Positions 3,212 through 12,631 of a stretch of 37,714 nucleotides of DNA are shown in pieces. The DNA is taken from IMG/VR virus record IMGVR_UViG_2526164601_000037. One strand, written 5' to 3'. Numbering within the stretch: the stretch's first letter is position 1; each line of letters opens with the position of its first letter. Position numbers and translations under genes: made by a program. The notes under the pieces are model-generated. The model saw nothing but the letters and a program-made list of their open reading frames with translations. It did not search any database and was not told the origin of the DNA. This stretch comes from a virus (taxonomy: Duplodnaviria > Heunggongvirae > Uroviricota > Caudoviricetes).

Positions 3212-3490
3212 ATGACCAAAGAGCATGCACAAGGTGTATTTATCCGTTTTATTGATTTTCGCGGTGAACTGTTATTGCGCGCATCAGCTATTGATGGAGT
3301 TGTCCCATCAGAAAAAAATGCAGCTACTTACGTTTATCTGAACGGCACGCGCCTGACCGTAGAACTTCCGTACCAGACTGTACACGGAATCATGAGCGAA
3401 GCTGAAAAGGCACGTCAGGTTAATGGCAATGAACCCTATATCGAAATTATTTGCATGGATTCAGAAGCTGAAATCCAGAAAGCAGATTAA
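3212..3490 (+). CDS. Hypothetical early-region protein
   Basis: ORF 3113..3490 trimmed to the ATG at 3212, preceded by AGGTG. Confidence 0.55.
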   Translation: MTKEHAQGVFIRFIDFRGELLLRASAIDGVVPSEKNAATYVYLNGTRLTVELPYQTVHGIMSEAEKARQVNGNEPYIEIICMDSEAEIQKAD

Positions 3491-9072: not shown

Positions 9073-10032
9073 ATGAAAATTTGTATCGACGACGGCTCCA
9101 CCAACATCAAGCTGGCATGGACTGAGAACAGCGAACGCCGCAACGCCATCAGCCCGAACAGCTTCAAGTCGGAATGGTCTGCGCCGTTCGGTGGCTCGCA
9201 GCCTGCGAACTACATGCTTGATGGCGTGCGCTATGGTTTTGATCCGGTCAGCGATCGCTTTGTCCAGACGACCGACACGCAATACCAGTACAGCGATGTG
9301 AATGTAATCGCCATTCACCACGCGCTGGTCAAATCAGGCATCACACCACAGGAGGTGGATGTGGTTGTCACCCTGCCACTGAGCGAGTATTTCGACACAA
9401 ACGCACAGCCGGACATGGCCAACATCAACCGCAAAAAAGCGAACGTTATGCGCCCGGTGGAGTACCAGAACGGTGAGGCATTCACTATCCGTAACGTGCG
9501 GGTTATGCCTGAATCCATTCCGGCTGGCTTTAAAGCACTGGCTGACATGAGTCCGTTTGAATCCCTGCTGATTGTGGATTTAGGCGGAACCACGCTGGAT
9601 GTGGCAAAGGTTCAGGGACAACTGGCAGGTATCAGCCAGGTGTTTTGCGATCCACACGTAGGCGTTTCCCTGATGGCCGATGCCGTACTGTCGGTGATGG
9701 CCACTAACGGTATGCGTACCAGTCACCACATCGCCAATACCATTATCGAACATCGCCATGATGAAGCCTGGCTGCGCCAGCACATCCACAATGACGCGCA
9801 TTACAACAGCCTGATGGCGGTTATTCGTGAAAAGGAAGAAACACTGAAACAACGCGTGATCCGCGCGCTGGCGGGTTTTTCGGGTTACGGGCGGGTGATG
9901 GTTGTCGGTGGAGGGGCGGAGATTGTGGCACCCGCTATCCGCGAAGCCTGCGGAGTTAATGCGACTTTCATCGCGGACGGGGTGCCACAGTTTGCTCTGG
10001 TTAATGGGCTGTACGCAATGGACAAGGAGTAA
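9073..10032 (+). CDS. parM: Actin-like segregation ATPase, ParM/StbA family
   Basis: N-terminus MKICIDDGSTNIKLAW and motifs SPNSF, YSDVNVIAIHHAL, VMPESIPAG, LIVDLGGTTLD, VMVVGGGAE match plasmid R1 ParM as recalled; RBS AAGGAAAAG. Confidence 0.9.
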   Translation: MKICIDDGSTNIKLAWTENSERRNAISPNSFKSEWSAPFGGSQPANYMLDGVRYGFDPVSDRFVQTTDTQYQYSDVNVIAIHHALVKSGITPQEVDVVVTLPLSEYFDTNAQPDMANINRKKANVMRPVEYQNGEAFTIRNVRVMPESIPAGFKALADMSPFESLLIVDLGGTTLDVAKVQGQLAGISQVFCDPHVGVSLMADAVLSVMATNGMRTSHHIANTIIEHRHDEAWLRQHIHNDAHYNSLMAVIREKEETLKQRVIRALAGFSGYGRVMVVGGGAEIVAPAIREACGVNATFIADGVPQFALVNGLYAMDKE

Positions 10033-10036
10033 ACCA

Positions 10037-10348
10037 ATGACGACACCAACCAGACGGATAAGTTTCTATCTGAAGCCCGCCGCCGTCAAGAACGAAGGCG
10101 AAGCATGCGCCTGGCTGGACAGCCTTACACCAGAAGCCCGCAAAAGCGGCCAACGCGTGGCTTTTCTGGCCGGGCTGGCACTTCTGAAAATGAATCCGGC
10201 AGAGGCTTACCGACTGGCTGCATGGGCTGACGATGAGGCGTTATCGGTGACACAAACCAGGACAGAACGCCCCGTGTCACAGCCAGTACCAACCGCACAG
10301 ATAACCAGTCAGATGGCAGGGAATATCCGGGCATTATTTCCTGAATGA
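10037..10348 (+). CDS. parR: ParR-like centromere-binding adaptor
   Basis: Immediately downstream of parM with strong RBS AAGGAG; ISFYLKP, AGLALL and C-terminal RALFPE resemble R1 ParR as recalled. Start trimmed to the ATG at 10037. Confidence 0.7.
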   Translation: MTTPTRRISFYLKPAAVKNEGEACAWLDSLTPEARKSGQRVAFLAGLALLKMNPAEAYRLAAWADDEALSVTQTRTERPVSQPVPTAQITSQMAGNIRALFPE

Positions 10349-10408: not shown

Positions 10409-10933
10409 ATGAAAAAATACGAATACATGCTAATGAAAGAAGCACTGCGGGCTGGTCTGGCTCCCTGTCCTGTATCCGTAGAAGCTGTTGTTGGGAACAC
10501 GATTTTCCGAACGCTGCGAAATCGCGTATCCGTGAAGATGATTCACCAACCACCCAAATCTACCAGCATGATCTATCTGCCGCTGCCCGAGGCTATCAAA
10601 CTTATGCGTTCGCTGAAATTTGCGATTTGGATGCAGACACAACTCAACAAAGCGGTGCAAAACACCTTCGTTAAGAAACTGATGCCGGAGCTTGCTGCCA
10701 GATGTGCAAAATGTACCAGACCCGCACTTCAATTTGATCTGTCATTGATTCAACAAGCTACGGAGGCAGAACTGTACCGCCTGTCACCTCTCCATGATGC
10801 TCACACGGAAGCCTCAGAAATGTTCCGGCTCATGTTTCAATTTAATTTTGCCGTTCGACGCACACGCATTCAGGTCAATCGCATGATGCAGGCGCAGGAA
10901 GAGCTGACGCAACACAAAGGAGGCAACCAGTGA
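10409..10933 (+). CDS. Hypothetical protein in the A-to-Q cargo region
   Basis: ORF track, 174 aa, RBS GAGG eight nt upstream; no similarity recognised. Confidence 0.55.
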   Translation: MKKYEYMLMKEALRAGLAPCPVSVEAVVGNTIFRTLRNRVSVKMIHQPPKSTSMIYLPLPEAIKLMRSLKFAIWMQTQLNKAVQNTFVKKLMPELAARCAKCTRPALQFDLSLIQQATEAELYRLSPLHDAHTEASEMFRLMFQFNFAVRRTRIQVNRMMQAQEELTQHKGGNQ

Positions 10934-11105
10934 GCAAAATTGACTATCAGGCATTACGCGAGGCGGCACAAAACTATCAATCGACGCTGGCGTGGTATGA
11001 GGTTGACGCGGGCTAGTTTTGCCGCAAGGATAATTCGTTTCAGCGGGTGATTTTTTGCGCTATCATTCCGGCAGTGGTTCACGATTATTGGCAGGAAAGG
11101 CAATT

Positions 11106-11699
11106 ATGAGCAGTAAAAAAAATAAAATAACATCTATGGCCGCAGCGCTGGCGGTGGCTCTCGCCCCTGTTCCTGCCAGTAGCATTGTGCATCATGACTT
11201 ATCAATCTCCCGGCACAGTACGTCTACGCTATCCCTCCAGGACGTAAAGGATTCTGTGGCATACCTTCCTATTGATGAGGCCACCAGTTATATGCTTAAC
11301 CTGGCTGATAGGATGAAGACACACAGGGCAAACCTTCGCATCGAATGGGAAGAAAAGCAGATCCCTATTATTCTGAAAAATCAGAAAAAAGAGACTCAGG
11401 AAGGGTTTGAAAGCCTTTTCCGTCATATTGCGGTATGTGCAAGTTTTGTCGAGGCTGCAAGGGTTGCGCTGAAAAGCGTACCTGAAAGTAACGCGGAACT
11501 GAGAAAAGAGATTGTCGCTTTTGCTCGTTCCGCTGCGACGCTCCGCTATACGATTGAAGATATTTTATCCTTCATTGAAAGCACGCATGTGCCGAAGAAA
11601 ACTTCAGATGCTGATCTGGGTGTTACCGCCGATCAGGTTCGCGCACTTATCCGCAGTGAACATAAAAAGCTGGGCCTTAAAGATCCAACGTTCCATTAA
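11106..11699 (+). CDS. Hypothetical protein upstream of the YafO-like toxin gene; candidate antitoxin or partner, not YafN-like
   Basis: ORF 11055..11699 trimmed to the ATG at 11106 (RBS AGGAAAGG); hydrophobic N-terminal stretch AAALAVALAPVPA; 9-nt gap to the downstream toxin gene. Confidence 0.55.
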   Translation: MSSKKNKITSMAAALAVALAPVPASSIVHHDLSISRHSTSTLSLQDVKDSVAYLPIDEATSYMLNLADRMKTHRANLRIEWEEKQIPIILKNQKKETQEGFESLFRHIAVCASFVEAARVALKSVPESNAELRKEIVAFARSAATLRYTIEDILSFIESTHVPKKTSDADLGVTADQVRALIRSEHKKLGLKDPTFH

Positions 11700-11708
11700 G
11701 GCAGGGCC

Positions 11709-12089
11709 ATGATTAAAGTCTCTGTCCACAATGACATAGAACTCCCCGCAGTTGCTCGTAAATATGCACATGCTTTGCAGTCATGGAAAAACGGCGGATC
11801 TTTACCCTCAGTCTTTGGCAACGAAGGGCAGTGGGAAGATAGCGGGCGTCTTCGTGATTCTTTTGTTTTTAAGATTCACATTCGTTTACCTGATGAACAG
11901 CCGTGGCCTGCAAAGCTACCTGCCGCCTCGCGTAAATCAAACAGTTATCTTGTTTACTCCCGCCATTTCTTATATCCAGATAAGTATCAGCTAATCAGCA
12001 TTATGACACCCAATGCGCATGAGTTAGCCCGTACATCCTACATGGCAGAAATTGAGCGCAGAGCAGAAGAGTTCCAGTCTTCTTTTTGA
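11709..12089 (+). CDS. YafO-family toxin-like protein (ribosome-dependent mRNA interferase family)
   Basis: Segments SWKNGGSLPSVFG, FKIHIRLP, SYLVYSRH, QLISIMTPNAHELAR and MAEIERRAEEF align with E. coli YafO as recalled. Confidence 0.7.
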   Translation: MIKVSVHNDIELPAVARKYAHALQSWKNGGSLPSVFGNEGQWEDSGRLRDSFVFKIHIRLPDEQPWPAKLPAASRKSNSYLVYSRHFLYPDKYQLISIMTPNAHELARTSYMAEIERRAEEFQSSF

Positions 12090-12130
12090 GTTTTGCGACG
12101 ACTATCTATCAATCCCTTACTAATCTGAAA

Positions 12131-12160
12131 AGCTGCCTTTTGAAGGCGGCTTTTCTTTCT
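12131..12160 (+). terminator. Candidate intrinsic terminator after the YafO-like operon
   Basis: Imperfect hairpin AGCTGCC-TTTTGAA-GGCGGCT followed by TTTCTTTCTT. Confidence 0.45.
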
Positions 12161-12180
12161 TCCTGGCCTTCTTTCTCTGT

Positions 12181-12210
12181 TGCACAATAGTGCACAAATT
12201 TGCACAATTT
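12181..12210. repeat. Three helically phased 10-bp direct repeats TGCACAA(N3)
   Basis: tgcacaatag / tgcacaaatt / tgcacaattt at 12181, 12191, 12201; a fourth TGCACAA at 12273..12279; adjacent direct repeat GGATCCGT at 12251..12258 and 12262..12269. Confidence 0.5.
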
Positions 12211-12631
12211 TTTTGAACGACTTTTTACCCTTCCGGCCCGCATGGCGGCTGGATCCGTCAAGGATCCGTGCGTGCACAAAAAAACGCGCTTTTTCTGCGC
12301 GCAGGTGACGGGGGAACAGCCCGCGTTTCAGGGGGTAAATAGCATTCCCTGAACGATGTCGCAGCGACACAACAGAATGGCTGTATTTCTCACACTGAGC
12401 GTGAAAAAGGCGTGAGGGCTTTTGATTTGATGGGGTGACAGATAAGGCCGTCAAAATCGCACTGAGGCGGCAAGAACATGCAGTCAACGCGGTGGGATTG
12501 CGTAAGAGCCTGACCGTCGATGATGGCGATAAGCTGGAAGACGTCGTGAAATTATCTGATTGATACAGGAGCTGGAGAGTCGGGGCATAAATTTTTTATG
12601 CCCCGGCGAAGCAGCAGACAAGCGAAGCGCG

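Follow-up and report, generated by a model that had tools for sequence, protein, structure and literature searches.

Gene content and organisation of the A–Q region

The stretch of DNA analysed here (the window, 37,714 nucleotides) is a complete P2-like prophage of the P88/Xuanwuvirus type, and the same prophage element adjoins pheA in E. coli DSM 103246. The genes in the region between the replication gene A and the portal gene Q are arranged in the order A, parM, parR, orf174, an ead/Ea22-like pseudogene remnant, a pair of small genes that is the subject of this report, the cos-proximal region, Q and P, with Q and P on the minus strand. The gpA–gpQ interval is a documented P2 defence hotspot, in which P2 itself carries old and tin (PMC9122126; also PMC13586616). 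The features of the region are as follows.

9073..10032, ParM/StbA-like actin ATPase gene of the A–Q hotspot, 319 aa
10037..10348, Plasmid_stab_B (ParR-like) gene of the A–Q hotspot, 103 aa
10409..10933, orf174, 174 aa, no Pfam match
10997..12170, plus strand, mobile cargo cassette comprising a leader, the gene pair and a terminator, recognised as a block of DNA identity with a drop in GC content
11046..11075, plus strand, conserved upstream element GGTGATTTTTTGCGCTATCATTCC..., candidate promoter/operator, common to the Klebsiella copy (locus L012)
11106..11699, plus strand, partner gene (putative antitoxin of an uncharacterised family), 197 aa, ATG preceded by AGGAAAGG
11106..11183, plus strand, partner residues 1–26, Sec-signal-peptide-like N-terminus MSSKKNKITSMAAALAVALAPVPASS with a tripartite layout
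11628..11696, plus strand, partner residues 175–197, C-terminal end (helix plus tail) VRALIRSEHKKLGLKDPTFH, with the highest mean pairwise identity in the family (0.48)
11709..12089, plus strand, YafO-family toxin gene (RelE/BECR fold), 126 aa, ATG preceded by AAGGCAGGG
12127..12155, plus strand, intrinsic terminator ending the two-gene operon, 13-bp stem (6 G-C pairs), 3-nt loop, T-rich tail

The partner and YafO genes are separated by 9 nt and share a common frame, and both are annotated as CDSs in the RefSeq record of E. coli DSM 103246 (WP_000095653 and WP_000598767). The original prediction, made from the window's sequence, had placed two ORFs of this size, position and spacing in the A-to-Q cargo hotspot, and both the gene calls, with which RefSeq agrees, and their location between genes A and Q are borne out. 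Both genes are real and under purifying selection, with dN/dS values relative to the Serratia copy of 0.15 for the partner gene and 0.02 for the YafO gene; in more distant comparisons the synonymous sites are saturated, and the non-synonymous differences of the two genes are 0.09–0.44. We note that between the E. coli window and Serratia (11709..12089 and L004 6604-6981, respectively, for the toxin gene) dS is 0.58 for the YafO gene and 0.22 for the partner gene, the reverse of the order at the protein level, where the YafO proteins are 97.6% and the partners 92.4% identical. This contrast hints at a mosaic history inside the cassette.

The terminator is a strong one and lies 38 nt 3' of the YafO stop codon. 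At the other end, the Klebsiella copy, which has a different insertion site, keeps approximately 30 nt of 5' sequence, GGTGATTTTTTGCGCTATCATTCC, in common with window 11046-11070; this element travels with the cassette and is a candidate promoter or operator. A promoter scan upstream of the pair found no consensus sigma-70 promoter, and the only inverted repeats there are weak. The cassette holds no further candidate ORF or RNA, and Rfam gives no match in the region.

Three observations concern the immediate surroundings. We considered orf174 as a possible third component and rejected it; it has no Pfam match and is outside the block shared across genera, which starts at 10997. A fragment of about 70 nt from an ead/Ea22-like pseudogene follows orf174 (the two together occupying 10409..11001) and ends at the cassette start at 10997; it looks like a recombination scar that marks the left junction of a cargo swap. 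To the right, 12156..12630, which presumably holds the cos site, contains extra terminator-like hairpins at 12190-12205 (plus strand) and 12302-12284 (minus strand).

The downstream protein belongs to the YafO toxin family

The 126-aa protein matches the Pfam YafO_toxin profile (PF13957), whose gathering score is 25 bits, with a score of 95.5 bits (E 2.3e-27) over profile positions 2–100 of 101. It scores 59.4 bits against the NCBIfam YafO equivalog model (NF007377 / PRK09885), which is below the cutoff of 153, and its alignment with K-12 YafO shows 34% identity across 106 aa (E 1e-13). It is thus a member of the YafO_toxin family without being the orthologue of K-12 YafO. Among the PHROGs its match is phrog_1651, whose function is unknown. 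A RelE-like alpha/beta fold is predicted for it, and the residues that are invariant across its YafO subfamily and K-12 YafO include G37, S51, H57, R75, H104 and E120; a search of PDB sequences with the 126-aa protein gave no match and thus no solved structure for this family member.

YafO is among the least studied of the RelE-superfamily toxins. Experiments have established the K-12 protein as a translation-dependent mRNA interferase (PMC2814082), and some ribosome-independent cleavage has been suggested as well (PMC11980606). By homology, and from its dN/dS of 0.02, the window's YafO protein is predicted to cleave mRNA in a translation-linked manner and to arrest growth when expressed.

The upstream gene encodes a member of a small helical family

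The 197-aa partner matches no family in Pfam, NCBIfam, PHROG or PADLOC and no PDB entry by sequence profile, and neither it nor the YafO protein matches a known or candidate defence family in PADLOC-DB v2. YafN is, to our knowledge, the sole characterised YafO antitoxin, and the partner does not resemble it; the BLASTP E value between the two is 49, the hhalign probability of the partner family profile against YafN is 0.4%, and there is no match of the partner to the Pfam PhdYeFM family. The original prediction described the downstream protein as YafO-like and the upstream one as unlike YafN and hydrophobic at its N-terminus, and it proposed profile searches of both. Those searches agree with it, since the toxin passes the YafO profile (95.5 bits against 25) and the partner corresponds to no known antitoxin, and the partner's N-terminus is indeed hydrophobic, its charged start (+3) being followed by a stretch whose most hydrophobic 12 residues have a mean Kyte-Doolittle value of 2.26.

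The partner family is small and belongs to the Enterobacterales. Its close homologues form 23 clusters at 90% identity among 5.8 billion proteins, and 33 representatives at 50% identity were found among 1.84 billion proteins; the full-length representatives are about 190–210 aa and the others are shorter fragments. The genera represented among the named members are Escherichia, Serratia, Buttiauxella, Erwinia, Mixta, Izhakiella, Photorhabdus and Klebsiella.

An AF2 model of the partner (mean pLDDT 70) is a predicted all-helical bundle. Residues 1–51 are modelled with low confidence as a short helix (4–18) and a disordered linker; these are followed by long helices at 56–84, 95–124 and 130–159 and by a C-terminal helix at 175–189. 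A Foldseek search of the PDB with this model returned only generic helical bundles at E values of at least 0.4. The sole pointer to a DNA-binding domain is a Pfam match to FaeA that stays below threshold (16.6 bits, cutoff 20.7), and Pfam and the Foldseek search of the PDB together reveal no HTH, RHH, AbrB or Phd domain and no DNA-binding fold. Some genuine antitoxins lack a DNA-binding domain.

Conservation of the partner across its distant members is bimodal. The mean pairwise identity is 0.12 in the n-region of the N-terminus, 0.14 in the linker and 0.19–0.31 in the helical core, and the two best-conserved segments are residues 11–26 (0.45) and the C-terminal helix and tail (0.48). I182, E185, L189 and G190 are invariant in the latter, and residues 175–197 may well be the motif that binds YafO.

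The partner has a conserved signal-peptide-like N-terminus

The N-terminus of the partner is tripartite. An n-region MSSKKNK is followed by the h-region ITSMAAALAVALA with a hydrophobic core of 13–14 residues, and by a c-region that reads PVPA followed by SS, or PASS followed by I, with small residues at -3 and -1. This is the layout of a Sec (SPase I) signal peptide, which is defined by a positive n-region, a hydrophobic core of 10–15 residues and small residues at -3/-1; the layout is a property of the sequence, and export and cleavage themselves are predicted. A signal peptide has also been called by Phobius for this exact protein (Rousset et al. 2022 Table S5B, PMC9122126). Of 16 distant family members, 13 show the same layout, with n-region charges of +1 to +5. 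If the positive-inside rule is applied, the main part of the protein would lie on the periplasmic side.

Even where the overall identity of the partners is as low as 25–32%, the motif A-P-V-P-A-x-S is invariant. In a codon alignment the third positions of A-P-V-P-A are free to vary (GCC/GCT/GCA for alanine, CCT/CCG/CCC/CCA for proline and GTT/GTG/GTA/GTC for valine), which indicates that it is the protein that is selected, rather than an RNA or DNA element. The N-terminal coding segment at 11121-11197 is the sole DNA-level match (blastn) to the Photorhabdus copies; an RNA or DNA element underlying the motif was considered and rejected, given the free synonymous variation and the lack of an Rfam match. 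The conserved signal-like N-terminus is the single feature of the pair that has no explanation in any standard model, and an export-like partner is hard to reconcile with the neutralisation of a toxin inside the cell.

The two genes are conserved as a pair

Partner and YafO genes are adjacent in about 20 loci from at least eight genera and in four kinds of insertion site, and a YafO_toxin gene lies directly downstream of every partner homologue that was examined except one, P0102. These loci come from three sources. Six genome loci were found with the partner profile. Eight more were reached from the toxin side through three YafO-subfamily clusters, in which the gene upstream of YafO encodes 197–209 aa without a Pfam match (147 aa as called in locus L014); the products of these upstream genes are distantly homologous to the partner (BLASTP E 2e-11 to 2e-22). 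Three further loci belong to distant representatives of the partner family; in one locus, L019, the YafO gene is uncalled and was recovered by tblastn (47.6% identity).

The homologous loci have gaps of 0–15 nt between the two genes or overlaps of 1–16 nt. Identity in these loci is 25–49% for the partner and 52–65% for the toxin, so the partner diverges faster. The pair is thus organised in the manner of a type II toxin-antitoxin (TA) system, being two small co-directional genes that are tightly spaced or overlapping and conserved together.

No member of the partner family is more divergent than the exception, P0102 (L017 3001-3600; L018 241-840), which lacks the hydrophobic N-terminus. Its gene is directly after the P2 gpA gene and is followed by hicAB, with no adjacent YafO gene. 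An orphan antitoxin and an anti-defence decoy are both possible roles for it.

Mobility, distribution and prior record of the cassette

Mixta, Izhakiella and Serratia carry P2-like prophages that are 90–95% identical to the window over the DNA from 10997 to about 12337, while the neighbouring portal gene is only 69% identical to theirs at the DNA level and its protein 69–70% identical. Other E. coli P2-like prophages match the window only to the left of approximately 11000 and to the right of approximately 12171–12181, and these flank-only matches set the limits of a cassette of about 1.2 kb. The GC content across the pair is 46–48%, against 54–57% in the phage backbone.

The cassette occurs in 7 of 5426 complete E. 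coli genomes, and INPHARED contains no sequenced phage with the partner. Its other locations are diverse. It adjoins the portal gene in an Erwinia tracheiphila P2-like prophage whose portal is only about 35% identical; in Klebsiella (L012, about 3240-3400) it lies between a tRNA 3' end, which is the att site, and the integrase gene of a P2-like prophage; in Serratia fonticola it follows gpU-gpD-ogr; and it is also found at the end of an HP1-like element and at the chromosomal intergenic sites rne/sbcB and yajL/thiI.

The pair has been recorded before. In their Table S5B, Rousset et al. 2022 (PMC9122126) list exactly this pair as system 123, "YafO_toxin", with 24 occurrences and a signal peptide in protein 1. 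Both of its protein sequences are identical to those of the window and it occupies the same gpA–gpQ hotspot. System 123 is a catalogue entry only, with no name or mechanism given in that paper, and the sequences of the pair are absent from those of its other supplementary files that are in text form, among them its table of tested systems. Beyond this catalogue line the partner family is undescribed; our literature search found no experimental test of the pair and no paper in which a YafO module was tested for phage defence.

Function of the pair

We consider it somewhat probable that the two genes form a type II-like TA pair, in which a YafO mRNase is matched with a dedicated partner of a new family and which is carried as exchangeable cargo in the gpA–gpQ hotspot; anti-phage defence as its specific purpose is less probable than the TA assignment. 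In such a pair the YafO-family RelE-fold endoribonuclease would stop translation by cleaving mRNA, and the partner would bind it directly and so neutralise it, with the partner's conserved C-terminal helix and tail as the most probable contact. The module might then act in abortive infection, where an infecting phage would cut off the supply of partner and so free YafO, or it might serve as an addiction module for the prophage. Support for a TA pair with a novel antitoxin, or for an abortive-infection module, is indirect and comes from the strict pairing, the tight spacing or overlap, the joint mobility of the two genes and their position in the hotspot. An abortive-infection role is plausible for a cassette found in phage hotspots.

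This functional reading is complicated by the signal-peptide-like N-terminus and by the lack of a detectable DNA-binding domain in the partner. If the partner were exported, or its body lay in the periplasm, it could not sequester a cytoplasmic RNase; classical autoregulation is unsupported because no DNA-binding domain was detected. Also to be set against a TA pair are the P0102 locus without YafO, the lack of a PADLOC match, and the shortness and 37% probability of the motif match to the partner of phage CUS-3 (see below).

It is rather unlikely that the pair serves instead to stabilise the P2-like element, as a prophage or episome, through post-segregational killing and has no part in defence against phages. 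TA modules are classically stabilisers, and such a function would suit a phage whose ParM (9073..10032) and Plasmid_stab_B (10037..10348) genes lie about 1 kb upstream of the cassette. This ParM/ParR-like pair is system 1 of the Rousset catalogue, with 4592 occurrences, and Rousset et al. propose that P2-like phages of this kind may persist as plasmids (PMC9122126). However, tblastn finds no ParM in the Mixta, Izhakiella, Serratia, Erwinia and Photorhabdus loci, which means that the cassette travels without parMR; it is also present at chromosomal intergenic sites, it is rare in E. coli, and it is exchanged like other hotspot cargo.

Less likely again is a control of the toxin that is linked to export. 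The partner would be a Sec substrate, or a protein anchored with its N-terminus inside and its C-terminus outside, and either its short-lived cytoplasmic precursor would restrain YafO or the two would form a complex at the translocon or membrane. The antitoxin would then be labile through secretion and not through proteolysis, and YafO would be freed when partner synthesis stops or when the membrane or Sec machinery is disturbed, for example by phage infection. The tripartite layout in distant members, the c-region of the form VPA followed by xS and the Phobius call all fit such a mechanism, as does the variable Ser/Thr-rich linker that follows, which is a feature of many exported proteins. 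The unusual protein-level conservation of the h- and c-regions suggests a role beyond generic targeting, the YafO partner of phage PhiR40_1 is signal-like at its N-terminus as well, and membrane-associated BECR-toxin modules have recently been proposed (PMC11980606). On the other hand, our literature search turned up no periplasmic antitoxin, some relatives have no signal peptide (the CUS-3 type, paired with YafO, and P0102, which lacks the N-terminus), and signal-peptide prediction can err on an Ala-rich segment. The strict form of this idea, that a genuine Sec substrate or signal-anchored protein doubles as the YafO antitoxin and couples toxin control to export or membrane integrity, we hold to be slightly more doubtful still. 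In that case the partner would be turned over by secretion or sequestered at the translocon, which would give a RelE-fold abortive-infection toxin a membrane-coupled trigger, and A-P-V-P-A-x-S would serve in both targeting and regulation.

Finally, it is very improbable that the genes are independent, the partner being an exported prophage moron (superinfection exclusion or envelope) and YafO an orphan or otherwise controlled, for although the signal-like N-terminus, the one family member without YafO and the absence of a DNA-binding or known antitoxin fold in the partner would allow this, the genes are adjacent with tight gaps or overlaps in about 20 loci, which span eight or more genera and insertion sites of four kinds, and an uncontrolled RelE-fold RNase with a dN/dS of 0.02 would be hard to maintain in a cassette that offers no other ORF or RNA as a candidate neutraliser.

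That a TA pair should be found in the P2 hotspot is expected and this one was already catalogued; the oddity is a putative antitoxin that is built like a secreted protein. A whole branch of YafO toxins, spread through the Enterobacterales by P2-like and other temperate phages, uses a partner other than YafN, namely a helical protein of about 200 residues with no known domain and an export-like N-terminus. Should the pair prove functional in TA or abortive infection, it would bring a new family of antitoxins and, from the P2 hotspot, one more candidate for defence. If the partner is truly exported or anchored, the control of a cytoplasmic RNase toxin would be linked to the cell envelope, for which we found no precedent. 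The cassette is self-contained and only about 1.2 kb long, so it should be easy to clone and test.

Comparison with known YafO and RelE-superfamily systems

YafO toxins are known to pair with Phd-type antitoxins or with unclassified partners identified by guilt by association (Leplae et al. 2011, PMC3141249). The window's pair resembles K-12 YafN-YafO in its toxin, which is of the same family (PF13957) with a predicted RelE/BECR-type fold and shared invariant residues, and in its gene order, with the partner gene first, the toxin gene second and a very short gap between them. It differs in the partner, which at 197 aa is about twice as long as the 97-aa YafN, has no similarity of the Phd/YefM type, and combines an all-helical predicted fold with a signal-like N-terminus. 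The setting also differs, since K-12 YafN-YafO is part of the SOS-regulated dinB operon and the window's pair is phage cargo.

Two other phages have YafO genes with long upstream partners, the P22-like CUS-3 (ECRS218_0007/0008; L023 908-1911; YafO_toxin score 43.6 bits) and the lambdoid PhiR40_1 (L024 222-1212; 76.5 bits). Their partners are likewise 180–200 aa long, have no Pfam match and are encoded directly upstream of, or overlapping, the YafO gene in a phage accessory region, but the toxins are only about 30% identical to that of the window, and neither partner has significant full-length similarity to the window's. For CUS-3 the likeness is confined to a 21-residue motif. The CUS-3 partner (199 aa), which has no hydrophobic N-terminus, ends in ...FKKSVEDSHKRLGMEPPxWKTA, and hhalign aligns it with the window partner's end, ...VRALIRSEHKKLGLKDPTFH, over 21 columns at an E value of 3.6e-4 and a probability of 37%. 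Its C-terminal motif, H-K-x-L-G-[LM]-x-x-P-x-[FW], resembles that of the window partner, both motifs are at the extreme C-terminus, and the sole other feature that the two proteins share is the YafO gene downstream; on its own this resemblance of short sequences is weak. The PhiR40_1 partner, which is annotated as "YafM antitoxin", has a signal-like N-terminus (MNPFNAITFAALCGPLACPAAMA followed by QE) and a different C-terminus.

The nearest parallel for a membrane connection is ToxM, the TM-fused BECR-fold toxins (Gerdes 2025 mBio, PMC11980606), which are likewise RelE-superfamily TA modules with a proposed link to the membrane. In ToxM, however, the TM domain is on the toxin, whereas in the pair described here the toxin is a soluble monodomain protein and the hydrophobic N-terminus is on its partner.
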